Source: Lytechinus pictus
Taxonomy: Eukaryota
DNA: 64,000 bases
Assembly (NCBI RefSeq): GCF_037042905.1
Contig: NC_087245.1
Location: forward strand, 35,342,001-35,406,000
Direction: 5' to 3'
In this document: positions 24,893 through 54,600 of the stretch, one piece after another
Layout of the letters: each line of letters starts with the position of its first letter
Numbering within the stretch: the stretch's first letter is position 1
Notes under the pieces: model-generated
Told to the model about the DNA's origin: nothing
What the model saw: the letters and a program-made list of their open reading frames with translations, nothing else
Databases searched by the model: none
Made by a program: the position numbers and the translations under genes

Positions 24893-27800
24893 GTATGCTC
24901 TAACTTTTTTCAAGAATATGTTAACAATAACATTTTTTATGCTACATCTGAATGGCTTGTGCCATCACACTGGGTTATCGCGTCGGGTCGGGCAATCGCG
25001 AAACATGACCATGCGAGGAAACTGCCCCATTCGAGAAAAGGGCCCCCTAACTTTCCGAAAGGTTCGGTCCAATTTACCCGATGTTTTGTGAAAACTGAAA
25101 ACTTTTTGAATGGTTGGGTATTTATATGTACTTGGGTTTAAACTGACCCGACATTTCAGGAATTTAAGGGGGCCTTTATTGAATGGTTGGGTATACTTGA
25201 TTGCCTGACCCGATGCGATAACCCAATGTGATGGCCCCAGGGGACCGGGGGACCACTTCCATTGACAAGTGGATACCCCTTCCATTGACAAGTGGATACC
25301 CTGCGCGACCATGTCCATGGTGTCTCGAAAAGCACCCTATAGAAGTTTTAGAAGTTGTGATTAGCTTTGCAATTGATACCATTGGAAAGAGGAACTCTTC
25401 CAGCTCTCAGAAAACTTTGAATTTTGAAAATTGACCCAATGATTTGTTAGTTATGCCCAATTATGTTTCGGCAATTGGACATGATATACCAAAGGTCAAA
25501 GGTCAAAGGTCATTCTTTTATTTTACTTTGTTGTGAGAATGGCACCATGAAAAACATGACATGTTTTCAAACTTGTGTTATTCCCATGTTTTTTGTATTA
25601 CAGGTATGAAACTTGGCAGGATGCTAGTAGATTTTGCTTTGATGTATTTTTTTGCATGCCCAGGTCAAAAAACCAGTTAAGGACCAGTTCATCCAACTGG
25701 TACTGGTACCAGTTGATTCCAGTTAGCGAACTGGATTCAATATGGAAATTGGAATACTGGAATCAACTGGAATCCAGTTGACAAATTGTAACTGGTACCA
25801 GTTGGAAATACCAGTTGGCAACTGGTCCTAACTGGTACCAGTTAGCAACTGGTACCAGTTGACAACTGGTCCTAACTGGTACCAGTTAGGACCAGTTGGA
25901 AACATGAGTTGTCAACTGGTGCCAGTTAAAACCAGTTGGAAACACCAATTGTAAACTGGTGCCAGTTAGGACCAGTTGGAAACATGAGTTGTCAACTGGT
26001 GCCAGTTAAAACCAGTTGGAAACACAAATTGTCAACTGGTGCCAGTTAGAAACATGAGGTGTCAACTGGTGCCAGTTAAAACCAGTTGGAAACACCAATT
26101 GTCAACTGGTGCCAGTTAGGACCAGTTGGAAACATGAGTTGTCAACTGGTGCCAGTTAAAACCAGTTGGAAACACCAGTTGTCAACTGGTGCCAGTTAGA
26201 ACAAGTTGGAAGCACCAGTTAGGACCAGTTGGAAACATAAATTGTCAAGTGGTACCAGTTAGAAACACCCTGCAATGTATAGCATAAACAAAAATGAATC
26301 ATGTGGATATGTACATTCCCGATCTTTTACTCTTCTCATATAATCACTCCTTCGTTTTCCTTGCGCACACACACATTAGAATATTGGTACCAACACCCCC
26401 CCCCCCCCTCTCAGGCGGTTATTTCAATTATAAATTATCTTCAATTATCTTTACATTGAATGTCCACTCCTGTTATAACAATGTGCATGGACAAGTGAAA
26501 TAATTATTCTTGCACATAGGACTGATGAAATGAATCAAGGTAAATTTGTAGCATTGTATTGAAACCTTGTTAATTTCCACATGCACAATATAACAGGATT
26601 GGACTGTAAACTTGCTCTGGTAAATCAATCCCTCAGTCTCTTGAAATCTGTACCAAAAATCATCAGAGAATGACAAAAGTCACAAAAAACATATATATGG
26701 TATTTAAACTAGGAATTTAATGAAAGAAAATTATGTTACAAACTGTAACATGCTGTGTATAATTCTTGTATTATGTGTCAACAAAGATCATTAACTTACA
26801 CAGTAAATATGTAGTCAATCCAATTTTTACATGCTAGCTTGGAGACAAAATTTGAATATAATGCATCTAAGCATTTACCTTCAATAAATAATATGTACTA
26901 TTTTTAAAGGAATGATAAAGGAGTCTTTTTTTAATTATTATTTATTGAGATCTTGGGGCCCTCACTGGCTCTGAAGAGGAAACGTGAAACAGGTACCTTC
27001 CTTTCCTGTAGTGGCACTTGATCTTTGCTGGTAGATGCGATGTATCTGAAGATTAGAAAAAAAAACAATGGAATGAAAAATAATAAGTACAGTGAATACC
27101 GTAATACAAAATTTCAGTGGTGTAAAATTATATCTGCACATAAAGAAAATACATGGGATAGTGAAACTTCTCTAAGTTCCATATTTCAATGATTCAATTA
27201 TAAATGATAGACAGCACATCATCATTTTTATTACAACATGTATAGTAAGTTCACATGGTCTTGGGAATACTTCTGAAATTGACATCGCAGAGATGAAATT
27301 GCCTCGACCTTATACCTATACATTTATTTTAATAATAAAGACTTAGACTATGTATGTTTGCATATATGTATCTAGGAGTCTATGTTGCACATTATCTGCT
27401 AACATCTGATGGGTATTTCATGATTGTCAGTGCCGACTATTTCAGTGAAATCATTGCTTTTGATTGGCTGAGAAGCACTGGCCTCTGACTGTTACTATGG
27501 TAACTGTCGGAAAAAGACAACTTGTTAATGCTGACAACTTTCAAAAAGCAGTTCCCAGAACAAGTTTAAAAAGCAAAATGATGAAAATTTCATCAAAATA
27601 GGATAACAAGAAGTTATTGAATTTTAAAGTTTATCAATATTTTGTGAAAACAGTTGTATGCACTTCGTCATGAATATTCATTAGGTGGGCTGATGTCACA
27701 TCTCCACTTTCCTTTTTTTTATGTTACTAGATGAAATCATAAATGTTTGATTTTTTCATACATGTGTAAATGATGCGTCTCCATTGTAATGAAATAAGTT

Positions 27801-30800
27801 GCGTCAATAACTAATGCACCTTATCAGTTGTCAATCCAATTGTCAATAGTTCTTGGTTAAAAATATCTTAATAAACCTAATCTCATATAATAAAATACAA
27901 AAGGGCAATTGGGATATGACATCATCAGCCAACCTAATGAATATTCATAAACATGATAAAGACATGCCTAGAACTATTTCACCGGAATAATGCAAATCTT
28001 TAAAATTCAAAACCTTAATTAGTTATCAAATTTTGATCAAGTTTTCAGCATTTTGCTCTGTGAATTTTACTCTATTTATTGAGATATGTTTCCAGCCTGG
28101 ACCATCCCTTTAATTCTACTTCTACGGTACCCCCACACATACTGGTAAGTCAGAGGTAAAAAACAACGAGAACCAATTTAATTTCAAAGATAAAAAAATA
28201 CTTCGGCCTCCAGATTTAAGAAAAAATTCAGGAAATGTTATTTTAGTTCAGACTAATTGTGCACGTTTCATTTTGGAGGTCAATCTGAAATTATACTTCC
28301 AGTTCCAAATTCACGCCATTTGGTTATGCAAAAGCATGAATTAAAATTGATGGGCATGGGCCCATGTCACTGGCTAGCCTAGAGGACTCCATGAAGATAA
28401 TTTTATCATTTTTACATTGTATTTTCATCACGGAGCCTAGACAAGCCTCCTATAAGGTTGCTCGTACAACTGTGTAAACAAAGATAGATTTCCCTCGGAA
28501 ATCCACCTTTCCCATAATGATTTTTGGGCAAACATTAAATTTTTACATTTTGTAAGCCTTGATACTCTAAATGTGTACAAAGGCTTAAAAAAAAATTAAT
28601 TGTAAAATGTACAAATTGGAAATTTTCTTACAAAAAGGATCACTTGCTTGCAGATCTTGTCCTCACTGCCTCTGAAGAGTTCACGTGCGACAGGTACATT
28701 CCTTTCCTCTACTGGCACACATTCTTTGCTGGTAGATGCGATGTATCTGAAGAATTTTTTTCAAAAACAATGGAGAGAAAAATAATCAGTACAGTGAACA
28801 ACAGCGAATAACAAATACGTATATATTACAGTGAATAGCAATACATGTCTACACCTAAGGCGGGCAAGGGTTACTACAGAGTGTTGTAAAATTCAATTTG
28901 CACTTTAAGAAAAATACATGGGATTGTGAATCAATTTTTACATTGTATTTTCATCACGGAGCCTAGACAAGCCTCCTATAAGGTTGCTCGTACAACTGTG
29001 TAAACAAAGATAGATTTGATTTTTCCTCGGAAATCCACCTTTCCCATAATGATTTTTGGGCAAACATTTAATTTTTACATTTTGTAAGCCTTGATACTCT
29101 AAATGTGTACAAAGGCTTTAAAAAAAATTAATTGTGAAATGTACAAATTGGAAATTTTCTTACAAAAAGGATCACTTGCTTGCAGATCTTGTTGTCCTCA
29201 CTGCCTCTGAAGAGTTCACGTGCGACAGGTACATTCCTTCCCTGTACTGGCACACGTTCTTTGCTGGTAGATGCGATGTATCTGAATAATTTTTTTTTAA
29301 ACAATGGAGAGAAAAATAATCAGTACAGTGAACAGTGAATAAAAATACGTCTATATTACAGTGAATAGCAATACATGTCTACACCTAAGGCGGGCAAGGG
29401 TTACTACAGAGTGTTGTAACATTCCATTTGCACATTAAGAAAAATACATGGGATTGTGAATCAATGATTCAACTATAATGATAAACAGCACATCATCATA
29501 TTTATTAAAAAAATGAGTAAGTTCACTTGGTCTTGGGAATACTTCTGAAATCGATGTCGCAGAGATCAGTCCTTCATGTTTATAATTCCATGGAGCTCAA
29601 TAAATGGCTCTCCTTATGCCTCCGAATTTGCTTTCCTAGACACACTCAATTTTATAAAATGCTCAATTGTTGTAGATTGTTATTAAAATTGTAAATGCAA
29701 CAGATGTGTAGCTATTAATTAATCTGTGGTGAAACTAGGCTTGGGTCATGTAAAAAAAGATCGCGCTCCTCAAAAAAAAATTATAAGTAGGGTGTCCGAA
29801 CTCATATTAGGCCTAAAAAAAGTGCTAGAATTTCATATTTTACATCTTTAAAACCATTAAATCACCATCTCTTTTCCATAATTCTCATAATAGAAGATAC
29901 ACAAAGACCCCAAAAGAAAACTTGACATCTGAATTACCTAACTTACAGCCTCCTCATATGGAGGGCAGCAACGAAGCATTCGGATCTCCACTCCTGAGTC
30001 CTGGCGGTTCTGAGCTGGGCCTTCTTCTGGAAACTACCGGTACCCCAGGTCATGTTCACTGACTTCATCTCCTCCTCGAGGCTCAGTATGACTCCAGGTG
30101 GTTTTGGGTCTCCCTCTCTCCTGAAATACACAGTCAAAAAGTGATAAACAGCTATTCATGAAAAAATCACTCTTAAAATGGTGGAAAAAATAATGAATTT
30201 CGATTTTCGGCATTTCAAAATCTCATCAAAATCCTCAAATCGTGTGTAAAGTGATTGGTGCGCAGACACGAGGCGCTGGCCACTATCATAATGTTAAATC
30301 TGAAATTGAAAATCATAACTGGCTGAGTCTCACTCTCACTCTCAGATTTTTTCCAAGACCAAGAAAATCAGTTTCACATTCGATCACATATCTCTCTCAT
30401 TTACTTATAACAATATATGGAACAATATCAACTGAAAGATTTTGTGAAATAAAAAGAAATTCATGTTAAATCTTAACACAAATCGTAAGGTCAATGTGAT
30501 GTATGTGCGCAGACTTGCACCGGCATGGCAGCCACACATCCACGCCCGGCTAGTCGCGGCCGGCAGGCAGCGCTGAGGGGCAGTAACAGGATGTCCTGAC
30601 GAACTAACGTTACAGCTAGCCCCGCAGCTAGCTGCGAGCCGCGCCATTTAACAAACTACGAAAAGAAAATCATAGAAAATTGTTAACTTACCTGTAGAGC
30701 CTACTGCGAATGTCTTAGCTTTCAAGTCATTGTCCAAATCTGGTCCGTGTGATTTCAGTGGTTGAATTATTATTAAAACGGCCTTCTTTACCCTTCTTTA

Positions 30801-33800
30801 TTGCACTAGCACTCGATAAAAGTGCGGTGCAAATTAACGGCGCGGCGAAGATGGCTCTTTCAAATTCAAATTAGATTGGCGGTTTGCGTTTGGCGGCGCT
30901 GGTTAATTTGCATAATTATACGGACGATATAGATAGCGATCAGTGGCACTCAGTGCGCATGCGCAGGCCCGCCCGCGCCCGGTGATTGAAGGAAGATCTG
31001 CTGAGTCAGGAATAACGAAGGGGGGGGGGGGGGGGGTCTAAAGCAAGAAAGAAGTTTTAAAATAGAAATACGAACTTCTTAACATACAAATTTCTTCTTG
31101 TTTGGTTTTGGTTGGCAACCAGTCAAGAAATGACGATTTTCGCCTCTGCTTTTGGAGCTTTTTTTTTTTTCTTTGAAAGTTTAAGAATGAATTAGCTTAA
31201 TATTTGTTCTTTATTTCTATTTTATTTATTTTCTTTTTATTTGAAAGATAAAGATAGCCTTGCTTAACATGGCAAGGTTGTAAACTAGCAATAAATATGC
31301 GCGTTATAAATAGAAAAAAATAGCTATTCTATTCACCTTCAAAAATATTTTTAAAATATCAGTGAGTTAAAAAAAGAAAAATACATTAATTTTTATGTGA
31401 TTTGTAAAAATAGTGTAAAATAGTCCTCTTTAACTTAAATTAGAAAAAAGGGATTAAATAGGAAGAAATTTTTTTCTCGCAACAAATATCTAGGATAACA
31501 ATTTTTTTAATGTAAACTAGAAAATTTCACTGAGAATAACATGTTTCGATTTAAGTTATATGGTAATATCGAACCACATACTTTAATGAAACTTTTCAAG
31601 GTGGAAATATTAAAATTAACATAAAGAATAATTAAGTTAGTTATTATGTAGATATTTTTTTCCTCTTATCCTCAATCGAGCTGTGTATAGGATGGATAAA
31701 TGCATGGCATTTATTGTGGTAAAAGGCTGAATTACATGAATTTGTACAGAGCAAAATTTCAGTAAACAAATAAGCAACGAAAAAATAACAAAGTATACTA
31801 ATGTATAATATTGGAAAGGGGATACAAAAAGAAAAGTATACAGGGAGGGGGGGGGGGGGAGTAATGTCAAAAGCAGGAACAGGCAAAGGTTTGGAGTAGG
31901 CTTAATGTATATACCTTTAACATAATGAACATTTTCACATAAATATATATTTAACCAATGTTGAATGAATAACAATACATGTAGATTAAAGAGTGGATTG
32001 TATGAAATAATACTTGCTTTTTTTTTTAGAAAAGTAACGCTTTGTTGATGGTAACAATAATAATAGTTATAGGAAACACATTCATGAATGATAATCATAA
32101 AGAATTATCTCAAAAGGAATTAAAAACAAAGATAAGAGGACTTTGAAGTAATATGATCTGTACAAAAAATATAAATATTAATGTAAAGTTGGTTACAGCT
32201 ATATTGAGCCAGTGACTTGTCGGATAAGAAATTTGAATGATTACTGCAGATATCAACAATTACAAAAATATTTCAAAAGTCAGTTTAAGAGAAGCGACAA
32301 ATAAAACAACAAAGGTATGAAAACATAGTTCTTATATAATATATATATATATATATATATAAACTCTGTTGGAAATAAGTACAATGCATTACCACTATGC
32401 CTCTAATATACATATATATATATGTATATATTATATATGTATATACTGGTTCTTACTAGAATCAACTGGTAAGTCCTATTGGTTCTAACTGGTATCATTT
32501 GGTTTGATATTCCAGTATGGTTAATGGGTTTCAAGTGGGTTATGGGTGGCCTATGGGTTCCAACTGGTATAATCTGTTCCAGTTTGGTTTATGGGTTTAA
32601 CTGAAATCAGCTGGTAGATATATACTGGTAATGCCTATTGGTTCTAACTGGTATCAATTGGTTTGATATTCCAGTATGGTAAATGGGTTTCAAGTGGGTT
32701 ATGGGAGGTCTATATTCCAGTATGGTAAATGGGTTTCAAGTGGGTTATGGGAGGTCTATGGGTTCCAACTGGTAAAATATGTCCCAGTTTAATTGATTTA
32801 TGGGTTTTAACTGGAATCAACTGGTAGTATACCAGTAATGTATGTTGATTTTAACTGGTATCAATTGGTTTGATATTCCAGTATGGTTAATGGGTTTCAA
32901 GTGGGTTATGGGAGGTCTATGGGTTCCAACTGGTAAAATATGTTCCAGTTTGGTTTATGGGTTTTAACTGGAATCAACTGGTAGTATACCAGTAATGTAT
33001 GCTGGTTTAACTGGTATCAATTGGTTTGAAATTCCAGTATGGTTAATGGGTTTCAAGTGGGTTATGGGAGGTCTATGGGTTCCAACTGGTATAATCTGCT
33101 CCAGTATGGTTTATGGCTTTTAACTGGAATCAGCTGGTAGATATGCCAGTAATGCCTATATTGGTTCTAACTGGTATCCATTGGTTTGATATTCCAGTAT
33201 GGTTAATGGGTTTCAAGTGGGGTTATGGGAGGTCTATGGGTTCCAACTGGAACACTCTGATCCAGTTTGGTTTATGGGTTTTAACTGGAATCAACTGGTA
33301 GGTATACCAGTAATGCATGTTGGTTCTAACTGGTATCAATTGGTTTAATGATATACCAGTATGGTTTATGGGTTTAAGGTGGCATTAACTGGTATATACA
33401 CCCATTGGGTTTCTATGGGTTCCAACTGGCATCATATGGTCCAGTTTGGATAATGGGTTTTAAACTGGAATCTATTGGTAGATAAACCAGAAAGGCCTAT
33501 TGGTTTTAACTGGTATTAACTGGTGTACTAATTTATACCAGTATAGTTAATTGGTTTCAACTGGAATAAACTTGTATGTTTTCAGCATGTCCAGTTGAGA
33601 CAATGGGTTTCAACTGGAATATACTGGCATGGTGGGAGTTTACCAGTTGTGCCAATTGGTTTCAACTGGTACCAGTTGACTCCAGTTGAAACCAGTTAAA
33701 ATTTCAACTGGTTTCAACTGGTTTTTTTACCTGGGTGGTCAAGGTCATTAGTAATAAATATTAAATCATAATTTTTGCATATTTTTCAATATTTTTGCCT

Positions 33801-36800
33801 TTCTGGTCAATTAAAGTGGAAATGTTTAGTTGAATATGATGTGTAATGCTATTAAAAAGTATGGAAATATATTTCATATATATATATCTCTTTTTATTCA
33901 AATCAACTTTTGTTGGGGTAGACTTGTTTGTACAATTTGCTTGAACTGGTATAAATTTGATGGAACTGGTTTCCAGTTGATTTTTACTGGTCCAGTTAGA
34001 AATCAACTGGCCCAGTAGAAATGTACTGGAAACCAGATACTGGTCATACTGGTCCATCGTACCATGCAGTTTGATGAAAAACAATTTAACTGGTATTAAT
34101 ACTTTGCTTGAACTGGTATACATTATGATCAAATGGCATTGTGCATAGAAGCATGAAAATTGCAAAAGTTGTGCCAATTTTTAAGAAAGGCAACCCTGAA
34201 TTGTTGACCAATTATCGTCCAATTTCTTTGTTGACATCTTTTTAAAAAATCCTTGAAAAACTCATATATGCAAGGGTCATACATTTCTTTAAAAAGTCAA
34301 ATATCTTTTCGAATGTTCAATTTGGGTTTCGTGAGAAGCATACAACTACACATGCCATTTTGCACTTTGTTGATAAGGTTGCCACTGCCTTGGATAATTA
34401 CTTGAGCACAATTGGTATATTCTTGGATCTTTCCAAGGCTTTTGATACAGTTGATCATAGAATTTTGCTACACAAGTTATCCCATTATGGAGTGAGAGGT
34501 GTTGCCCTTGAGTGGTTTAGGAGTTATCTCACTGACAGGAGACAATTTGTATCTTTGAATAGAATTAATTCCAGCTTGCAAACTGTTACATGTGGTGTAC
34601 CTCAGGGGTCTCTTCTAGGACCTCTCTTATTCATACTGTATATAAATGATTTTCAAAATTCATCAAACAAATTATCCTTTATTATCTTTGCTGATGATTC
34701 TAGTGTATTTTTTTCACATAGGAATCCTCTAACCCTGATAGAAACAGTGAATTGAAGAATGTTATCTTGTGGGTTCAAGCCAATAAATTATCACTTAATT
34801 TTCAAAAGACAAATTATATGCTTTTTAGCAATTCCTTAAAAATGTTGCCTGGCAATGTAATGTTTAATAATGTCTGTCTTGAAAGAGTAACCTTTACTAA
34901 ATTTCTTGGGTTATTTATTGATGAGAAATTGAACTGGAAACTTTATGTAAATCATCTCTGCAAACTGTTGTAAAAAAATACTGGTGTTATACAAGTTGAG
35001 ATCAGTTTCCCCTAAAGAAATTTTATTTATATTATATTCCTCATTAATAGTTCCTTACTTAAATTACGGTGTGCTTGCCTGGGGCAACTCACTTAAAACG
35101 CAATTGCAAAAATTATTCATTGTTCAGAAGAGAGCTATTAGAAGTATATGTAATGTCAGTTATCGTGCCCAACTGCCCATACAAATATTTTATTTTTCAA
35201 AATTCAAATTCATTTATTTCACATCTGTAAAAAACATACAAGATACAATATATCGAGATCAATCAAAATGATTCCATAGTAAAGGAGTAATGAATATTGT
35301 AAAATGACAAATTAACAAAAATAACAAAATACATAGGGTAATGAATGCGATGTGGGGGAATAGCAAAAGCCAAATAGACCTATCTAGGCTACTCCCTGAT
35401 TAACATTCATTACCGAAAAAAGACCATCCTGCAATTAATTGATTAGATTGCAAGAAACACACATTTCAAAATAAATGAAAAAAAATAGAAAAAAAATAAC
35501 AACTATATTACAAAAAAATATGTTTAAAAAACATACACATAAAAGCAAGCAAGCTTATTCACTGAGAACATGGTGAAGTATACATATTTAGAAGGTAAGA
35601 CTTACATCTTACTTTAAATGAATTTAGCGAAGGACTTTCTTTTATTTCAGGGGGCAAACTGTTCCATATGAGTGGTCCACTATAACTTATGACTGTTCTT
35701 GAGAAAGAAAAGCGGTAAAAAGGAATGTATAAATTATCAGAATTTCTTGTATTATATTTGTTTACACTGCGATTTGTTTTAAAATAACTGTTGAATGTGT
35801 CAGGCAACTGATTCTTGTAGTATGAAAACATAAAACTTGCAGTGTGAAGGGTATGTATATCATAAATTTTCAGAATCTTTAATTTACGGAATAATTGATG
35901 AGAGTGAGCTAAATATGGGGAATTTGTTATTATTCTTATTGCCCGTTTTTGTAAGCGAAATAATTGTAGCATTAAATAATTTGCACAGTCCCCCCATACG
36001 ATATTGCAATAGCTGAGATGCGTGAGTATCATTGTATTGTATAATTGAACACGAATATGCAATGGTAAGTCACCTTTATTTCTATTAAGTAAACCAATGG
36101 TTTGAGAAATCTTCATAGAAATATTATTTACATGTTGTTTCCAACTCATGCTATCGTCAATTGTGACACCTAGGAATTTCGTATATTGCACTTTCTGAAT
36201 TTCAAAAATCATTAATATATAATTTTATGGAGTTTTCTTCAATTTTCTTATTTTTAGGCTTAAAAATCATAAAAGATGTCTTCTTAGTGTTAATTTGTAG
36301 TCTGTTGGCTTGGAACCACATGTGAACTTTTTCCATTTCAGAATTTAAAATATTATTTAATTGAATGGGATCCTTACCAGATAAAAATAAACTTGTATCG
36401 TCTGCAAATAAGGTAGTACTTAGTTAAAATATTACTTACATGTTGCAGGTCATTGATGTACAATATAAAAAGAAGAGGGCCTAGGTTAGACCCCTGGGGT
36501 ACCCCTACTCTAATGTCCTGAAAGTCTGAATGAATTTTGTTGATGCATACACATTGTTTTCGATTTCTTAAGTAACTGATTAACCACTTCAATACTGTCC
36601 CTCTAAACCCGTATGATGATAGCTTATCAATTAAAATATTATGGTCTATACAATCGAATGCTTTAGATAAGTCTAAAAATACACCAATCATTATTGCTTT
36701 GTTTTCATATTCCTTAGCTATTTTTTTCGGTTAAATCATGACAATCACTTATTGAAAGTGGAAGATATTTACTTTATGCAGCTAGGATCTCTTATGTATG

Positions 36801-42659: not shown

Positions 42660-45600
42660 TTTTTTTTTGGGGGGGGGGGCGGGGGGCTACTTTTCACGAC
42701 GTACATGCACGCCTTTTTTGCCTAAATCTTCAACATTGGATAACAATGAAGGAATGGGGTTTGTCCAGACTCCAGGGCCCCATCTTACAAAGAGTTGCGA
42801 TTGATCCGATCAATCACAACTATGGACGGCCAGCAACATCAACATCTATTATGCATGTTTGTTCAAAATATTTTTCTAGCTATGATGTAAATTCATGCAT
42901 TCATTGTTTTCTTGAAAATTCACTGTGACTCTCTTTGATTACAAAGCACATTGTGCAAATTTCCTGTAGAAAAAATTATGACACTGATGGATTTCCATAG
43001 AGTTTCGATTGGTTGGATCAATCGTAACTCTTTGTAAGACGGGGTCCTGGGCTCCTTTTTTTTTTTTATAGTTTCCAGGGTTCTTTTTTATTATTATGGG
43101 GGCAAAATTACCTGAGCCCCTGTCCCTGTGTAATTTTCCCTGATATATATCCTTATTTTTCATTCCCAGTTCAATACAATATTACAGTACATAAAGGATG
43201 CTCTCTCCGATATCCATCTATTCACTACATTCTATTTGGTCAATCCTTGGAGGCACACGTCAACTATGAAAAAGAAAGGAAAAGAAAACAGAAATGGGAA
43301 ACAACATAATCAATGTTGAGTTTTTTAGTACTCCTTTGGCTTTAGTGGTGCGTTGGCCCATGGCATCTATTGTGGTCTTTCTATTCTTCCCACAGCTTAC
43401 CGGGCATGTTGATTATATTGACTCCTACAGTGACACCTTCACAGAGTGAGCGGTTCAAAACACGTATTATTACGTCTACTGTAGTGGGGAGTAAGAGAAA
43501 GAGATAGAGGCAAGTGTGTTTTGGGGTATTTTCCAGGCTGTCGCACCCGAGATGTTTCAGAAATGGAAGTTTGATTTAGTGTATGGTATATCAAGCCTTG
43601 ATGCAGACATTCAAGTTAGCTGATGGCATGCATTACATTATGCTTTACGGATGTTTTATGGGAATTCTCATGTCTACGCACCAATCATTGGAACCTTGTC
43701 AGTGAATATGTTTTGTGGATTCTCTGTGGTATGTGGAGTATATTATGTATCACCTGCAAGCTTATGGACTATTTTGATTTGCACTGTAGTGGAACACTAC
43801 CTGTACTGAACTTGAGAACCTTTTTTGCAAAGGAGATTCTGTTTGGTTTCTAAATGGGACATTGTATTGTAGTAGGGTAAATATCATGTGAAGGTAACCT
43901 GAACTTGTCTTTAATAAAAGCATTCCACAGCTTGGTAGAATGACCCAACCTTTTTTACCTGGGAAGATCTTCTAAACGTCGTAAGAGACAGAAGTCTTCA
44001 AGCCGGTTGTCTTGATCTTGGTTGGCTACCAAAAGGGTTCTAATAGCACCATTTTCATATAGTCATATAAAAAAATATAGACCCCTGGGAATTTGATGAC
44101 TAAATACATTTTCTCAGTAAATCTTTCCGACAGAATTACTCCATATCAATATCATGTCCCTTTTATGCTGGTACGGAGTAGAATTACTCAATATTTAAGT
44201 GTTGCTTCACACACTGTCTTTAAAACCCTAGCTACTGTACTGACCCTGGTGCACTGATCACACACAACACACCTGCAACGCCACTGATTGCATTACCATC
44301 TCTCTGTACAGCTTCCTTGAATAATTTTAATCAATTGCTGCACTCGGCATAGTGCATGCAATACATCTATGGGATACAACACATTCAAGATCAGCATCTC
44401 TTAAGCCGAGTGAGACATTGTGGAGGCATGCTGTGGACACCACAAAGCAAAATTCTGTGATACCACAACATTATTTGACCCTTTAAGGGAACGTTGGACA
44501 TCTTCTAGCGGTATTTCTCTTTAAAAAATCGAAGAAATCACCCTGCTCCAAGATTGTTAATTTGTCTGCAATCTCTGTTGCATCATCAGTGATCGACAAA
44601 CGTGTGGGGAAGGAAGAAGAGAGATACAAAGCATTGATGGTCTTACATGTATAGCAGTAAATTCAGTCTTTGTAATATTTGAAGGAATCTTTGAGCACAA
44701 ACCAATAATGGCAAGTGGAGATCTAGGAATCCCATCATCTTCTTCCCTTAACGCAGAAGGTTTGGAAATACGCATAGCACCTCCAAAACAAGGTACATAG
44801 TATGCGTGTGGTGTATTTCATTGGGGTGATTTCAAGTTCAGTGTTGCATGGTGTTGGTGTTGTGAGCGAGAAAGGGCTCTTTAAGGGAGAAAAATGGGCT
44901 GGGTTTTGAATTACGCGATACTGATCGCATTATCAATAGATTGTGATGTCACGCCTCTGCCCCGCCAATCAGCTCAATTTTACACGGAAAGTCCGGAGAA
45001 GTCTCGACGACGAAAGAGAATTGGAGGAGAAATTAATTGAAGTAAAATCTTATTAAAAAGTACAGACTGCAAAGGTTGAAATCACTGCAAGACTCAGAAA
45101 GAGTGAATATTATTCATTAAAATGTATAAAGATCTGATGATTTACACACGTCTTAACTTAAAAGCAAATTTTTATGAGAATGTTTCATCCTGTAATGCTG
45201 AAAATTTCACCGAAATCAGATGTAAAATAAGAAAGTTACACTTTAACTTTTTGCTTATTTTTCACCTAGTACAGGTATATATGCACAACTCAGTGATATT
45301 TTTTACAGATCTGACAATAAGTATGAACTTGACTGAATCACAAATTGTTGAAACAATGGTAATTCCACATGTTCAGGGAGGAGTAAAAAAATAGGACTTT
45401 CACATGACATTGAGGAGAAAATTAAAATATTTCATATCATAAAATATAAAAGAGATAGTGAGTGGATAATGTCATTACTCGCCTCATTTTCATACCAACT
45501 GTTCAAGATGTGCATATAGCCGTTTTGATGAAAATTTCAGTGATTTATGCTTTTTGGATTTTCCCTTTTTATTCAAATCAACTTTTTGTTAGAGGTAAAC

Positions 45601-48600
45601 TTGTCCTTAAAAAATGTTACATCTCTCAAACAAAAAATTATCAATGCATAATTGCTTTTGTTTCTATTGAGTTTATAATGAAAAAAAAACATGTTGGCAA
45701 AATAGGATTTTTAACCCCAAATCAAATAGAGATTTAAAAACATATCATCTGCATAGTGCATGTTTTTTTTTCTCTTCTTTTATTAAGTGGCTTTAATGAC
45801 ATGTAACATTGGCGGTCATCAAAACCATTTGTATCACGGTACGACCCATTTCTGAGAAAACCGACATAATGTATGGAACCTATGACACATTGAATAGTAT
45901 AATTCAGTTGTATGATAAAACCATCTTCATCAGATGTGAATACACTGTATAATATAAGCTGCATGTGAAGTCCAAGAGATTTTGGGTCTCACTCTCAAAA
46001 GAGGGCCAAACAAATATAGAGGCTGTTCTCACTACGTTCCTAAAACTTGTTTACTGGAAACTACATGTAGTTTAGTGGAAACTAGTTTAACGCGTAGTGA
46101 GAACGGTCAAAGCGGTCTTGGAAGCGATCTTCCAAACCAGTTTGGAAAACCACCTCGCGATGTAGTTTTCAAGATCGCTTTGCCTCGTTAAACTGGTTTT
46201 AGCGTAAGTGAGGACACAACCGTTCTTCGGGAAGTGATCTTCGCACATTTTGAGCGCGCTACTCCACACGACAGGTGTAGAATGCCTATGCTGCGGTTTC
46301 AAATTTCGCGCGAAACGTGTCACCCCACTGAGAGCGTTTCCATAGCAACAAGAGCGCTTTACGTGAAGTGATTTTGAAAACCACTTTCGTGTGATCAAGT
46401 GGGAACGCTAGCAAAGCGATCTTCCAAAGTGGTTTCCTGAATCGGTTTCCAGTAAACTAGTTTAAAAAAGCGTAATGAGAACGGCCTCTATAGTTGAACT
46501 AGACTGTTAGATGCCTATAAACTTTTTACAGTCTTGCACCCGATTCCAATATATGATGGTATCAGAGACATTTTACGTTTATCGACAGGTCCAAGTTATT
46601 TGACTAAGTTTCAATATTAGTTTGATGATTTTTTAAATCGGCTGCTCACAAATTGAAACGATCCCTTTAAGTCATACTTAGCTCTTTGTGAAACACCTCC
46701 CTAGTCCTCTACCTTTCATGAATGTGAACTGTCTGCACCCAGTTGGATCCACATCCATGAATTTAAGCCTGCCACTCATGGTAAAAAAAGTACTTTGCCA
46801 CCTGCCACAAATTCCCCCTAAACTGCTTGAGAAACATTCACACAAATGAGCTCAATCAGGTCATTTAATGATACAGGATTCTCAAGAATTGGGTTCTTCA
46901 ATTGATTACAGAATTCACCCCTCAATTTGAAGATTGTAAGGCACTAATAATCCTGAAACCCTGCCCCTAACTCTTCGCCATGGGGTGAGCGCTTCATTTC
47001 CTTTGCTCATGCCACTTTGCGGTTTACACTTTGCCCGGCACTAAAAATGGTCTAGCTACAACACTCTCTGCGTCCTTGAATTATTAAAATAGATATCAAT
47101 GCTTAGAATGCTCATAGGTATCATAGCTTTAACAGGATGCTCCAATGCAAAATGCTCTCTCCTGTCTTGGTGTATCAACTCTGATATCCTTGAAGGAACA
47201 GAAATCAAGAGGGGATGGAGGATATTATTATTTTTTATTTGAATCAGTATCTATGGAAATTTGAAGCTCTTATGATTACATCCATCCCTTCTCCCAGTTT
47301 TATATCTGTCAATTGGTAAGCATCTCATCAATTTAGACAGGTTGATGGGGAGAGTGAGAGGGTGTATACTTTAGTGTAAAAGGAGAGATGAATGGATGAG
47401 GGGGGATTTATTTTGTTGAAATTTCAGTTCTCCAAAGTCAATAATATACCAGACATCAAGATTTTAAACTTAGCAATCAGGGGGTTAAGGCATTGCCCAC
47501 AAGCTCAGATCATATCAATTTTGTTAATTTTTTAAAATTATTTCTTGACAGATAAACATGCCCTCATCAATCCAAAGGAAAGAGCACCATTGAAAGAAAA
47601 TGTAATTGTCCAACAGGAGTTGATATGTGGTTATGATGGCCTGCGATTCATCATCGTGACATCTCTGGTGTTTGCTTTGGCCGTGACTATTGGCATGGTC
47701 ATATCTATCATTGCTGGAATTAGACAGGTAAGGGATCATAGCTACAATATAAATTTTAGTGACGAAAATCCAGATTATTGACATCCAGAAATGATGGAAA
47801 GATACCTGTAAGGGACTGAAATACAACAAAATGTGCAAATATTTTGTGAGACTATGCATGTTTCATCTGAAAATTTACCATATACATGTAGGAACTATGA
47901 TTGTCAGTCAATCAAAATCAAGGAAAGTTGTAGGATTTGCCAACTTGTAGGAAAATAAATGTTGATGAAATGCTCCCCCGAACAGAGCTTAGAATCCTTT
48001 GATGAAATTTTGTTTCAAAGTTAACAAAAATGGCTTTTGCAGTGAGCAGGGTGGTAGATATGGTTTCTTACTGCAACAACCGACATTCATCTGTCATCAA
48101 TTATTCTTGTCAAATCATATACTCTCAAATGAGACCGATATATTTTGTTTCTAAACTATGTGTAATGTCTGTTTGGTAAACAACTGTGGCTTCTCTTTGA
48201 TTGAAAATCATGTTGCGTCTGATGTAATATTTGGTTTTATTAAACAACCTATGAGAAGTGGTGTTGATTCTTTCTTGAAACCAACAAATGCATGTTGAAG
48301 TTGATTTGCAATAATAGCAGATCCAACTGCTCTGTTCATACTTAGATAGACCCGCATGGTGCGATAGCTACTGATGTTGAAGTGTGTTCGGACATCGGAG
48401 CAGACGTGCTGAAGCGTGGAGGGCATGCAGTCGATGCAGCGGTTGCAGCAGCGTTTTGTCTTGGAGTAGTACATGGTCATTACTCAGGATTAGGAGGGTA
48501 AGAATTCTCTTAAATTCTTATGTTATCAACATTAATGCTAATAATATTCATGTTAATAATTCTTGCCTCTTTTATTACACATAACTCCTGAGCTGATGGG

Positions 48601-51600
48601 CTCCATCACAGCCTAGGTTATGCCCCTGTATTTTGGTTCATGTATTTTTTTATTTTACTGTTACTACATTAATACAGAAACCCTTACTTTACAAATACTG
48701 TCATGTTTATCAAGGCCACTATTTCAACTTAGACAGATTTCATTATCTGTATAAAACTCTTCACTGATTAGGTGAACCCCCAACACAAATTCAGATATAT
48801 TTTACACATTATGGCTTTCTTTGGCTTTACATGATTATTTTGAAAAGTTTTATTTCATCCAGGGACCTGTTACATAAAATTTTATTTACACTTATCACTA
48901 CTATAAAATCTGTGATACAGTTTAGTGTTCACTTAAAGGAGAATGAAACTCTTGGAGCAAGTTAGCTTTTGTGAAAGCAGAAAAATCAAAGAATAAGATC
49001 AACAAAAGTTTGAGTAAAATAGGACTAGCAATAGAAGAGTTATGAGCATTTGAATGTCGAGATCACTAATGCTATGGAGATCCTCCCATTGGCAATGCGA
49101 CCAAGATCTATGATGTCACAGATGAACAACTCTCCCCTTTTGGACACTGAAAATATACCCCAAAACATCTTCTTTTACTCATTCTAATCATATGACAAAC
49201 GATTCATCAATGATATAATGTTGTGAAACCTCTGTACTTGTCCTCTCATAAAGAGAACACCTCACCTTGTGAAATACTCTATAAAAGTGAGAATATAAGT
49301 GAAATAAGTACTAAAGTAATGAGGGAGTTGTACGTCTGTGACATCACAGATCTTGGTCGCATTGCCAATGGGAGGATCTACATGGCATTAGTGATCTCAA
49401 TATTCAAATGCTCATAACTTTCTTATTATTCATTCAATCTTCCTCAAACTTTCAACAATATGTTTCTTTGATTTTTTTCTTTGATATGGATTCAGCTGGT
49501 TTCAAGGGTTTCATTCTCCTTTAAGTCAACATCCTAGAGGTAAAAAAATTATACCCCAATTCAAAGGAATCTTTCAGACCAATGCAGATTATGCAAGACA
49601 TGTTTTATTTGCCTCTCTCGTACTGTCTTCACACTGGCCTCAAACACCACTACAGTCCCGGGACTGTCCCGAGACTGTAGCGGTGTTGCCTTCAGTGTTA
49701 ATTCTCAGACCCGCAATAAACCACCCTGAGATAACCTTGCCTTGCTATAACTCTGCAACAAACTTTTGCGCTCAAACTATAGTCATAGCAGCGAGGCAGT
49801 CCTGCGATTGTCCCGCTCTGCTTTTAGTGTGAAGGCACACTACTACAACACTGGGATAAACCAATCGTGATTGGTTAAGCTGACCAATGTTTTCTCTACA
49901 ATGGGTGTATAAAGTGAAATAGAACAAAAAAAGCAACCAATGGATTCAAGTCGATCTTATTTGTGAATGTTAAATTTGATGAAATTATAATATTTTGCAC
50001 TTCAAATAATAATGCAATTCTGACTCGGAGCCAATAAATAAATAATGATTGAAATAATAAATGACCATTTTTAAAAGTTAAGATCGAGGATCCAGCGAGC
50101 AGAGATGTGTTTCTGGCGCTGATCTGTATAAAAGATCAGCGGTTTCCTCATTTTCCTGTCATATCGGGATCGCTCATGTGGTCACAAGCTTATGTGATTT
50201 TGCAGAGACGATTAAAATCACCCCCTGCAGTGTGAATGGGCACATAGAATGTATCCCGGAACTGTATCCGGATAACTCTTCTTCATTTATAGCTGGTTTA
50301 TAGTGGTGGACATTGCTGTCCTGTGACAGCACTCACTGGGAAAAGTTTGAAACCCACTGTGAAGATGGTATAAGTTAAACTTCGCCAAGGTCCATGCAGA
50401 TTATTCCAACGTACAGTACAGTGTACATGTATGTGAGCAATCGATCATTTGGGATGATCCATTCAAATCAAACATACACAAAGTGATAGTCAAGATGTAA
50501 TAGTAAAAACATTGGTTATTTTTGTAAATATATAAACATTTTTAACTGCATGGTAATTCATTAATATGACTCTTTGTATTCACTTGTATAAAAAAAAAAT
50601 CATATCTGCTTGTATTAAGGGAAATTAAATACTGCTCTGCAAAAATAAGCCCGGAGTATGAGGCCTTCAAAAGTGCATATTGTGTTTGTGGTTGACATTG
50701 CTTTTACTGATCATTAACTCTAGGATCAATATCAAATCCTGACTCACATGACATTGTACTGCATGTGAAGGTCAAATTCATATCCTGAGCACTGTTTCAC
50801 AAAATTTCAAAGGAATGGCTGTCGTTTTATTTTACTGAAATTGTGTCATCTGGTTGGCCAAACCGCCAAAGGCCTGTTTGTCATTGGAATCTGGTATCTC
50901 TTTAAATGTTAAGTTTTATGAAACAAGCGCCAATCAACCTCACCAACGCTATACACTATGCATTATTTGAACTGGCAATAGGCCTATAGTATGATGTAGG
51001 CATACAATTAGTTTTATGTCAGTGTTTTTATAAATATGTACAGTATATCAGTAATGTAGAACTGATTGGATTTGTTCAAGGATATTCTATTCAAATAGAA
51101 TCTCCCTGGCTCGTTCAGATAAGAAGATAACATCGCTTTATAATTTTGTTCAAATCTTGAAGCCCCCTTTATACAGAGACAAACTGCTTCTGGTAGCGGG
51201 GGGGGGGGGGGGGGGGGGGAGGTATGGCACATTTCACCAAAGAAATTATGTGATAGTACAAAATTTAACCTGGGAAAAATAACCCTAATTACACTGTAGA
51301 AACAATTTTTTCTGACGATCATCCGCTCTAAAGACACCTTTGGTTTAAAATTTAAATATGTGATTTATGATCAGATTAACTGGCTTTTTCCTCTTTTTAA
51401 AGGAAAAAAAAGTGTTATTACAAAAATTCAACTTGGAAAAATAACTCTTAAACAGTAATAACATATTTATAAAGACCATCCGCAGTCCTACATGTTTTAT
51501 TGTGTCCTCTGAGTATAGGCCTGGCTATTGGCCTCTATACGTAGGTTTCTGTGATTTAAATCAAATTAAGAATTTTCTTTATTTCTTTTGTGCAGTGGTG

Positions 51601-54600
51601 GTTTTCTGCTGGTAGGTAACCCTATTACCAATGACCTGAATGGGTTTGATTTCAGGGAGACAGCACCAGCTGGTAGCAGTGCTAACATGTTTGAAAACAA
51701 TCCACAAGCAGCTCTACAGGTGAGATATCTTGTGTAGCATTTCATTTAGAAGAAATTCATTCAATGTACATGTATACAAAGAAGTTGTTTATTTTCAAAT
51801 GTGTCCTGGTTCTACGTCTCATGAGGCTGTTACATTTACATCGTTGCGTTTACGAAAACGTCACCAGGCACGAAACATGTGTGGCATCTAGGGTATCAAA
51901 ATATGAGACATTTGGAAAAAAATGGAAAGAGGATATAAAGGGAAGCATTTTGAGTGACAAAACTGTTTTCCACAAGGGCCCTAGCTGTCCGCATAACATA
52001 CAATTTGTTATAATTAAATCAGTATTTACACAATAAAGAGCACAATTTTTTGGATAAAGAATCAGAAAAAAACCTACAAATATATCTGCTGATAGTTAGA
52101 TAACACTTTCAGCTTTTTCACACATGATGTACATGTACGGAAAAGTGATCTGTTTAAACCTGTCATCTGTCCCTATGATGTTGGGCAGATACAAACTTGC
52201 TTTCTGCAAACTAGTCGGAGCAGTCTGCAGGTATGAAGTTCATTTGGAGAGACTATCCGCCCTTCACACGGGGAAAAGATTGTAATTTGAATGATGATTC
52301 CAGTGAAAAATAAGGCTAATGACAAATTCTAGCACGTGTGAAACCAAACAAGAACATGATTAGAATCATGAATGCTATAAATCACAATCACGAATTCAAA
52401 TTCTACTCTGGAGGGGCATTCCAGTTAAGTTTCACTCAAATTATGGTACGAATTTGCGTGTGAAAGGCTTGACCTCCAAAACATCTTTTGGTGGGCGGGG
52501 CTTACGTGAACTTTCAAGCACTTCCGTAGATAATACTATTGTTATGTACTCATCGTAGTTTGTATTTGCGATGCAGTTCTTTGATTGACAAGTCACCAAG
52601 GACACATACCGCCTTCGCTCAGGAATTCGAATTCAAATCACAGTTTTCGAGTGAGCGTGTGAAAGGTCCGATGATTCTAAAGACGAGTTGCAATCATCTT
52701 TACAATGATTCAAGATTCATGTGTGAAAAGGCCCTATGAGTTTTCATGTATGAAAGGATATTTGTCTTAAATACCTCGGTCACGTTTGCTCTACGGTGGC
52801 TGTACGGCGATTCAAAACAGCTGTTTTAACAATTTTTGTACCAGCTATACATAGGTGGTTTGAATAAAAATGAATAAAACGGCTGTTTTTGACTCGCCGT
52901 ACGGCCGCCGTAGAGCAAATGTGACCAAGGTATAACTGCGCAGAGCTTTGACTAGTGGACGATCTTCACTCAAAATAAGTGCACACACCAATCTGTCTGC
53001 TTGTAAACACAATGCACATTGTACTTACTGCGCATAATATCTTTAGACTAATCTGCTTGAAGGAATTATACGAATGTGTGAAGCAGAACTAGTATTTATG
53101 TGGAAAACAACTTAAATTATTTTATTTGTTTCAAAGGGAGGCTTAGCTGTTGCAACACCTGGTGAGCTGAAAGGATTAGAAGCAGCGTGGAAACAATATG
53201 GAAAGTGAGTGGTATAAACCGTGTACATAGCTTCCTATGACAGTCAACATTAATTCATGTTTGCTCCTCAAATTTGGCAACAATCATTAATTTTCCATTC
53301 ATATTTTTGGTTTGTAGAAATTAAGTATTGATAAAACGTGAGTAATAAATAATTATTGAAATTACTGACTGCACTTTTCCAAGGGCACATTTCTTTATTA
53401 CATCACAAAAGGATAATGTGAAAAATTTCACACAAAGAAATAGATATACTATACAAAGCAACACATTAATAAAGATATATATGCATTAGGGCCTAATATG
53501 CATAAGTTCGAATTAGTTATGTCGTGAGTTTGATGAGTCAACACTCCAAGAAAGCCTCTTCTTTCTTAAGTATGGGTATTTCTACTTTATTTGGTCATCA
53601 TTCAATGTCTTGTCATCAAAAGAGAGAGAGAGAGAGAGTGAAGCGAAGCAAAGCCTTGCAAATGCAAAGAAAGCATAAAAAAAGAAAGAGTAAGATCCCA
53701 AATTAATCACAGATATTCTAAAGAGAATCAAAATATAATTTTCCTCCCCATAATCAATGAATGAACCATTATTTTACATCATTTAGAACCTTGATTAGGA
53801 TCATTAGAAATTAATATTATATTCATTTCAACATTAAAAGTTCCATTTCTCCATACTACAGATTATAATGAAATAGATTAGCAATTATTGCAATTCTATT
53901 CAATTATAATAATATTGATATTTGTCCCGTAGGTTGAAATGGTCAGAGTTGGTAGAACCATCAATCGAACTGGCTGAAAATGGATTTCAAATCACTCAAC
54001 AGCTTGGTAAGACATTTTAAACATCTTTATGTTACTAGACTTTGCTCTATTTTGTCACTGTTTTTTTTTTCTGTAAGTCCTTCTGTCGTTTTTTTTATAT
54101 TTTCACCTCACATCATGGAACTACATTCTCTTCCTCCTTTTGAATTCTGGTATATGACCTTAACTGAAGTGATGGTTTGCACTTGCTTTTAAAATTTTCT
54201 ATCCTTGGCCCTGTTGCATAAGATTTTCTAAAAAATTGTAACTTTGCCAATTGCCTTTCAATGATAACATCATTTGCATGTACTGTTCTAATTGTATTCA
54301 TTAGGAACTATTCTTAAATCTTCATTTTTATTTATTGTGTTTTTCAGTCCCCCCCCTCTTTTTCATGGATTAAATTCAATTGTCCTTCTTGTATTTCTAT
54401 CCTTGTCAATATTATGAATTATCCAACTGAACGTGGTTGCGATGAATGACTCGGAATAAATAAACATGTCCATATTCTTTTTATGCTATTTCCTAGCTGC
54501 TGACATCAGCGAGACAGATTTCTCTTGGATGTCGGAGTCATTACGTGAGCTCTTTGAAAAGAAGAAATTCAATGATACCATCCACAGACCATCTCTTGCC

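Follow-up and report, generated by a model that had tools for sequence, protein, structure and literature searches.

A transposase-less CMC/EnSpm-type element of Lytechinus pictus with a putative germ-line promoter that may have passed between transposon families

The window analysed here is a 64,000-nt stretch of the sea urchin Lytechinus pictus (contig NC_087245.1, positions 35,342,001 to 35,406,000 of the forward strand). At 25659-33735, in coordinates of the window, it contains a young, mobile, transposase-less CMC/EnSpm-type transposon. The interior of this element holds a promoter-like block followed on the minus strand by a series of candidate exons; we refer to the promoter and exon 1 as the module and to the whole minus-strand unit as the cassette. 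The same module adjoins at least three other types of transposon end elsewhere in the genome. The interpretation that we favour, at somewhat less than an even chance, is that a non-coding module, probably open in the germ line, has been re-housed between CMC/EnSpm families and would benefit its carrier in cis.

The terminal inverted repeats of the window element, which begin CCCAGG, lie at 25659-25678 (plus strand) and 33716-33735 (minus strand), agree at 19 of 20 nt and are bordered by TG on either side (25657-25658 and 33736-33737). Subterminal arrays of AACTGG/CCAGTT units follow, with a period of 40 on the left (25679-26270, presumably transposase binding sites) and of about 160 for the AACTGG units on the right (32450-33715). 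In the species' own genome (812 Mb), at least 40 places match the element core at 95-100% (best 40 of 1259 candidates), and exact matches to the ends number 45 for the left (30-mer) and 56 for the right (21-mer), against none for reversed controls. Thirty-nine copies were fetched, nine of which had no recognisable end in the fetched stretch. The other 30 have both ends within it; copies carry CCCAGG ends matching those of the window element, and all 30 show a 2-bp target-site duplication, represented by nine different dinucleotides and extending to a 3-bp match in only one copy. The interior of complete copies is colinear with both ends, so that cargo and ends travel as one unit. In total there are about 55 copies, 47 in a main group and eight in a sister subfamily (87-96%), with more diverged members also present; the mean pairwise distance among 31 main-group elements is 0.0084 (465 pairs).

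No transposase was found in the family itself: the longest open frame in a consensus of 31 elements is 86 amino acids (aa), and a search with the profile PF02992 gave zero matches inside any copy. Seven additional left ends, 13 right ends that lacked a partner, and copies of greater length were considered as a source and proved to be the same element with nested insertions, members of the sister subfamily (eight) or truncated ends (five). CCC is a variant of the CMC/EnSpm terminus, the target-site duplication of the group is 2-3 bp long with no fixed sequence, and its members carry subterminal arrays in which a short motif recurs in either orientation. CMC/EnSpm termini are described as starting with CAC (PMC12730594), and a 2-bp target-site duplication is described for zebrafish CMC/EnSpm elements (PMC13189230). 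Hallmarks of a non-autonomous CMC/EnSpm element are present, namely CCC inverted termini, the 2-bp duplication and arrays at both ends. The sequence-only reading, an earlier annotation of this DNA, had named the same ends, TG duplication and arrays and had proposed a transposase-less CMC/EnSpm-like mobile element; both points are borne out, as is the association of interior and ends for which it had suggested counting copies.

The promoter block, on the minus strand at 30845-30990, contains two TTTGAA motifs resembling CHR, the homology region of cell-cycle genes (30859-30870), a CCAAT-like element (30874-30879), an octamer-like element (30906-30913) and an NRF1-like palindrome (30954-30965), where NRF1, octamer and CCAAT are names that we presume to apply. 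NRF1-like 10-mers were absent from 231,424 control bases outside the family. Such a block had been proposed at 30845-30985, and the mutational patterns across copies support it, both by protection of CpG sites and by a hot spot of insertion. CpG transitions were seen at 7 of 78 sites in 30400-31050 (9%) compared with 37 of 88 in 26300-29950 (42%; Fisher p 1e-6), whereas non-CpG transitions are evenly distributed (12 of 225 versus 69 of 1127, p 0.76). The observed/expected ratio of CpG in 30400-31050 is 1.12. Protected CpGs inside a decayed body are the trace of an unmethylated island in a methylated body, and since CpG decay is low in 30400-31050 while other transitions are equal, we read this core as such an island.

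The core lies in a hot region (29950-31100) of short duplicating insertions and nested transposons. Across 45 copies, non-simple indels reach 85/kb in this region versus 17.5 and 24/kb on the flanking sides, with a peak of 34 events in 30800-31000, and substitutions are flat along the element at 105-109/kb. Insertions of 4-13 nt are enriched about ninefold (40.9/kb versus 4.7 and 9.1/kb elsewhere). Most hot-region insertions are private short duplications, the commonest type being 5 nt plus one base, and 5-nt duplications account for 19 of the 47 insertions of 4-13 nt. The sister subfamily shows the same hot spot (23.9 versus 6.3 and 5.6/kb, seven copies against one reference), and five nested insertions fall within 30551-30925. 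Excision footprints of a 5-bp-duplicating transposon, or breakage intrinsic to the sequence, are possible sources of the short insertions; of the nested elements that could be resolved there, some show overlaps of 9-10 nt and others lack terminal repeats, and none has an overlap of 5. The same foldback or Mutator-like element, with identical long terminal repeats and in one case a 9-nt duplication, was also seen to have inserted twice independently in the promoter region, at the equivalent of 30551 (L072) and near 30925 (L058/L101). In humans, open germ-line binding sites, those of NRF1 foremost, are enriched in short duplicating insertions (PMC8559717). Taken together, these patterns suggest that the element has a built-in promoter that is open in the germ line.

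We use the term shell for the set of transposon ends around a module, shell 1 being the ends of the window element. An exon-motif search (182 matches, 100 of them listed) led to an older 4.3-kb family, shell 2, represented by three copies with CCCTAGT ends and AAAATAG arrays; a TG duplication is seen in L110, the sole copy of the three with both ends intact. Shell 2 carries the same promoter and exon 1 as the window element, as well as one of the repeat exons and the 3' region, at 70-82%, the 3' part of the cassette (26297-26865, minus strand, with the candidate last acceptor AG at 26648-26649) being shared at 74-82%. At 31278-31492 the window element further encloses a decayed shell-2 right end, array and terminal repeat included (72% over 244 nt, E 8e-25). 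On the left side a new array stands in place of the old one, and the AT-rich spacer between the old and new right ends (31500-32440) may be former flanking DNA. Directly upstream of the module, a CCCCTTAC end and TGTGGTA arrays are found in shell 3 (L125), and a CCCTGATAG end and TGACGT-type arrays in shell 4 (L126, L127); L126 retains pieces of the shell-2 array. Exon 1, a candidate non-coding exon with a donor at 30692 (30692-30860, minus strand, its start probably near TTTGAA), is 67-76% identical between shell 1 and shells 2, 3 and 4, and 92-93% identical between shells 3 and 4.

In all six aligned sequences, which represent the four shells, ATTTGAAA, CCGCC and the NRF1-like motif occur in the same order; the NRF1-like site lies further upstream in the window and has one change in shell 4. 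In CHR-type promoters TTTGAA lies close to the start site or on it, and GC-rich, CCAAT or NRF1 elements stand upstream (PMC4176359, PMC3874167); by its motifs the promoter block appears to match this CHR-type (DREAM/MuvB) arrangement.

A search with the old promoter gave at least seven shell-2 places and 33 further exon-1 places, nine old-family rows having been set aside before the count; three of the further places, L125, L126 and L127, were read. Fifty distinct module places lie outside shells 1 and 2. A shell-3 end is found no more than 5 kb away at 27 of them, and a shell-4 end at the same range for another 12, where chance would give about 0.0005-0.001 each. Every module place examined adjoins transposon ends, 11 of the 50 being assigned to neither of these two end types. 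Module places thus number roughly 110 or more (about 60 in shell 1, seven in shell 2 and 50 others), a minimum, given that 40 candidates were scored in each search. As a separate observation, shell-4 and shell-3 ends stand back to back, 1 kb apart, beside a module place at G000:C6:19724585 and C6:19725580-19728094. The cargo had been thought to have been assembled inside this transposon. The interior does travel with the ends, but the promoter and exon 1 predate shell 1 and are found with three other end types. Because four end types adjoin the module and an old end is enclosed in the window element, we propose re-housing, and the best reading is that the module is older than its present ends and was passed between CMC/EnSpm families.

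According to the interpretation that we favour, the window element would be moved in trans by a transposase that reads the AACTGG arrays, and its interior would supply a promoter with a probably spliced, non-coding transcript. New CMC ends may have landed around or beside an older carrier, after which the composite would have moved. Whatever the site of insertion, the module would protect a copy from methylation and hold it open in cells of the germ line; an open copy would be easier to mobilise and would attract further transposon ends, and the module would persist by acting in cis. A 145-aa frame that is open in some copies would have arisen as a by-product of the same mutational hot spot. 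A stronger version makes the promoter and exon 1 a transferable fitness module, that is, a cis-acting cell-cycle/germ-line CpG-island promoter that raises transposition and outlives individual families by way of new CMC ends. We think this version unlikely as it stands; if true, it would describe a selfish unit one level below the transposon, whose ends are replaceable vehicles.

Several observations weigh against re-housing for a benefit in cis. A complete autonomous element with the exact ends of the window element was not found, the nearest one, at G000:C19, being related but having a different end. Shells 3 and 4 were seen from their promoter-side end only, and at least 13 of the 100 shell-4 ends listed were matched to a module place, with 40 candidates scored per search. 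One shell-2 pair replicates the hot spot weakly (five of eight indels), the clade in which the 145-aa frame is open is the larger one (26 of 47 copies), and transcription, splicing and openness are all deduced from DNA sequence. In addition, an unrelated 13.5-kb CCC-ended element has no module, and no transposase either. This element (L028/L087/L086, G000:C8 at about 16.19-16.20 Mb) is nested in one copy of the window family, at the equivalent of window position 29604, and has CCC...GGG ends, an AA duplication and AACCATGG arrays. It contains a GC- and CpG-rich block of its own and a donor-like GTAAGT about 3.8 kb in; because of this block, large elements of this type may often have an internal promoter, which would make the window element less unique and the question wider.

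The module could instead be a neutral passenger, a real open promoter near which CMC elements frequently insert, so that composites form by chance, the carrier gains no advantage and copy number is set by the ends. Nested insertions do concentrate at the promoter, shell-4 ends far exceed the module places matched to them, and the blocks conserved between families vary near background among young copies, at 2-5 changes per 31 nt where 3.3 are expected. However, four separate end types have amplified the module, and in shell 1 some 2.7 kb separate the promoter from the new right end, which is not in the hot region. Moreover, the order of the NRF1-like, CCGCC and TTTGAA motifs has been kept across families that are 67-76% alike, with the spacers rearranged. 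We regard a passenger without effect as unlikely, though the likeliest of the alternatives.

The structure of the cassette bears on the remaining alternatives. All of the splice signals listed in the sequence-only reading are present on the minus strand, but the donors at 29180 and 28648 are GC, with a GT donor 16 nt further on in each case. Candidate exon 2 spans 29947-30120 with an ATG at 30068; candidate exon 3 spans 29164-29281 (GC donor after 29180; GT donor after 29164, the choice of the RefSeq models), candidate exon 4 28632-28746 (GC donor after 28648, GT donor after 28632) and candidate exon 5, possibly the terminal one, 26879-27045. Three of the five, exons 3, 4 and 5, are tandem copies of one unit. 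Exon 4 is a tandem duplicate of exon 3, is skipped or absent in the RefSeq models and is missing from some copies, and exon 5 is the repeat-exon copy nearest to shell 2 (77%). The latter holds a stop codon and, beside it, two AATAAA signals (26946 and 26935). A nested miniature inverted-repeat transposable element (MITE) with long inverted arms, whose ends we take to be Kolobok-like, occupies 27572-28120; about 110 bp are missing from the left end of the window copy.

One possibility is that the cassette is what remains of an autonomous CMC transcription unit after loss of the transposase exon, later passed between shells. There are 12 PF02992 hits in the genome, and the flanks of three were read. 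The DDE transposases of autonomous CMC/EnSpm elements bear C(2)C and H(3-4)H motifs. The element at G000:C19 has a 774-aa open frame (PF02992, E 5e-9) with CGLC and HSLLH motifs in its translation; its terminus, CCCAG...AACCAGTT, is similar to that of the window element and is accompanied by an AACTGG array. The gene resembles the cassette in layout: small exons, duplicated in tandem, precede a single large catalytic exon, and AACTGG arrays are found at the downstream end. The cassette likewise reads toward the end that resembles the C19 terminus. Yet, when compared by blastn, tblastx and an exon-1 profile with the three transposase loci read with 9-13 kb of flank and with the nine short ones, the cassette showed no similarity beyond the nested MITE and could not be placed as a piece of any of them. 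Nor, by eye, does any listed module place lie near a transposase hit. We consider a deletion remnant improbable. As to the mover of the window family, the C19 terminus differs from that of the window at positions 6-12 and the opposite, upstream end was not found; since the terminus is not identical and the other end is missing, the C19 element is only a candidate mover or a close relative of it.

A broken copy of the C19-type element is present on C2. Further CCCAGAAGG-type ends occur at G000:C2:3516023, C2:63102762, C4:27597898, C8:18360448, C8:36872941, C9:8036916 and C9:14534971 and are probably derivatives of the candidate transposase element, and six identical matches to the terminus pattern at G000:C8:20214237-20441280, spaced about 10 kb apart, are probably a tandem array of another repeat. 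At G000:C19, a second gene (L123:1300-1660, minus strand) apparently stands head to head with the 774-aa frame (L123:3537, plus strand) and shares with it a promoter containing TTTGAA-like motifs. The first exon of this divergent gene has no Pfam match. The transposase on C14 is preceded by a similar divergent frame.

Alternatively, the spliced transcript might act in trans as an RNA that aids the family, for instance by diverting small-RNA silencing as a decoy or by regulating the transposase, with the blocks next to the splice sites as its working parts. A 24-nt block after the acceptor is unchanged in exons 3, 4 and 5 and in shell 2, where the remainder is about 77% alike, and a block of 18 nt ahead of the exon-1 donor hardly varies. 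The 11 splice dinucleotides show zero substitutions in 45 copies, a weak indication given that about two were expected. Such conservation would fit splicing signals equally well, however, and the downstream exons differ from shell to shell, the 24-nt block not being seen in the stretches fetched for L125-L127. Moreover, an exon-1 alignment of six sequences showed no compensatory change in any of 35 predicted pairs, and an Rfam search of 25659-31100 gave five hits, all far below the gathering score. We hold a trans-acting RNA to be rather improbable, a little more so than a deletion remnant.

Very improbable, finally, is a protein-coding cargo, the mini-gene of the sequence-only reading, whose spliced product of 145 aa or 104-107 aa would be under selection. 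Joining the proposed exons from ATG 30068 does yield 145 aa, although the frame terminates at the stop inside exon 5 and is not, as had been supposed, free of stops. When the exons are joined as proposed, 21 of the 47 main-group copies (two not scorable) and one of the eight sister copies have an open frame of at least 105 aa. All 21 of these main-group copies carry a 7-nt insertion in exon 2 (near 29992-29998 in the window), composed of a 5-nt duplication plus two bases. The insertion is absent from 20 main-group copies, from all eight sister copies and from a 68% homologue in L127, where a stop follows within eight codons of the ATG. Five of the 26 insertion-bearing copies are broken again, and 14 of 19 exon-2 indel events shift the frame; frameshifts in other copies were the outcome that the sequence-only reading had itself set against its protein. 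Exons 3 and 4 differ by only 3 nt, and the ratio of non-synonymous to synonymous polymorphism (pN/pS) is 0.64 in the proposed frame, but it is equally low in the +1 frame (0.58; 0.96 in the other), and codon differences between exons 3 and 5 comprise one synonymous and eight non-synonymous changes. On a tree of 41 of the 55 copies the 7-nt insertion requires two changes versus 13.1 for shuffled labels; the tree has low support, is rooted at the midpoint and leaves out the sister subfamily, and the ancestral state of the insertion therefore rests on the outgroup sequences.

Three RefSeq models (XP_063957255.1, XP_063956393.1 and XP_063964517.1) predict proteins of 104-107 aa from these exons, with junctions that differ from those proposed: exon 2 is joined to one repeat exon, which uses the GT donor 16 nt past the GC donor, and then to exon 5. 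Matches to the protein are gene models of the same species only, with no relative in other species, a Pfam search with the proposed protein returned no family, and there is no reading frame common to the shell families. We read the 145-aa frame as an accident of one sublineage, a by-product of the insertion hot spot, and as a conserved protein it is largely refuted. A long non-coding RNA, which the sequence-only reading had named beside a cargo gene, is a possible product of the cassette. As a side observation, the model XP_054755266.1 (P0002) begins with an exon-2-like peptide followed by a reverse-transcriptase-like frame, which suggests that the module may splice into downstream DNA.

The coding exons of a GGT7-like (glutathione hydrolase 7-like) gene lie to the right of the element at 44708-59924 on the plus strand, 12 segments of which mapped to the RefSeq protein at 90-100%. 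Since these exons begin at 44708, some 11 kb lie between the element and the start codon downstream of it; the coding introns are thereby ruled out as its location, contrary to the idea that the cassette is antisense to a GGT intron, and a position in an intron of the 5' untranslated region is possible. Just beyond the right end of the element, a short AACTGG-rich patch with an inverted repeat (33880-34120) may be a remnant of a related element. Two fragments to the right of the element (34246-34755, plus strand; 35559-36224, minus strand) are, judging from their translations, of the reverse-transcriptase type of long interspersed nuclear elements. Elsewhere, at about 7.55-7.58 Mb on G000:C8 (L093, L102, L103), a truncated right end of the window family lies just downstream of one of two tandem host genes of the PR/zinc-finger type. 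A zinc-finger frame beside an orphan end was considered as a transposase and set aside, since its translation marks it as a host gene of this type.

Non-autonomous DNA transposons are commonly viewed as two ends with an inert filling. Should their multiplication depend on an internal promoter that is handed on between families with different ends, this would help to account for the length of 8-13 kb that some transposase-less elements retain. Present in about 110 copies, a germ-line-type promoter followed by splice donors can also rewire adjacent genes. The approach is transferable, in that a working promoter is located independently of RNA data by the patterns of insertion and CpG decay among young copies. 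Again if true, the near-identical copies would preserve, many times over, the mutations that open chromatin undergoes in an invertebrate germ line, a process that here created the 145-aa frame.

In the literature covered, which does not include Repbase, we found nothing on point about a promoter module shared by several CMC families or about these sea urchin elements. Pack-MULE and Pack-CACTA elements are the plant counterparts of animal Pack-TIRs. Like the latter, for example Drosophila Ssk-FB4 (PMC8277862), the window element is a multicopy element with terminal inverted repeats that carries upstream sequence and intron-bearing exons and has transposed repeatedly. Pack-TIRs are defined by a host parent locus, however, and because none was identified for the window cargo, which has no conserved protein and appears to have crossed transposon families, we do not file it among them. 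The zebrafish hybrid EnSpm-N49/N49B, a fusion of two families that is the most active form and is transcribed in early embryos (PMC13189230), resembles the window element in its short terminal repeats, 2-bp duplication, lack of a transposase and movement in trans, the last being predicted for the window element. The window element differs in its length of 8 kb and its CCC rather than CAC start, and whereas two sister families are joined in the zebrafish hybrid, an internal promoter and exon 1 are here associated with four unrelated sets of ends. Enlarged En/Spm elements are also known (PMC6431247).

In fungi, TET/JBP genes have moved from one lineage of DNA transposons to another, those of EnSpm among them (PMC12730594). 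They too are an accessory module handed between lineages and are thought to aid escape from methylation, but they encode an enzyme that acts in trans in autonomous elements, whereas the window module is apparently cis-acting, non-coding and carried by non-autonomous elements. The Caenorhabditis MITEs CERP2 and CELE2 (10.1101/2022.01.21.477252) likewise are non-autonomous DNA transposons that spread a germ-line promoter in an animal genome; they are short and their promoters have been co-opted by host genes, whereas the window promoter is embedded 2.7 kb deep in a large element and is followed by exons of its own. In the amphioxus composite unit between Zator-1 elements (PMC12905397), as in the window element, cargo enclosed by transposon ends moves as a unit and gives a non-coding RNA, which is predicted in our case; the amphioxus unit, however, holds a host gene copy under host promoters at few places, whereas the window cargo brings its own promoter and occupies about 110. 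EnSpm hybrids, passed cargo, MITE promoters and composite units are thus each known, and what is new here is a non-coding promoter and exon 1 common to four CCC-type ends.

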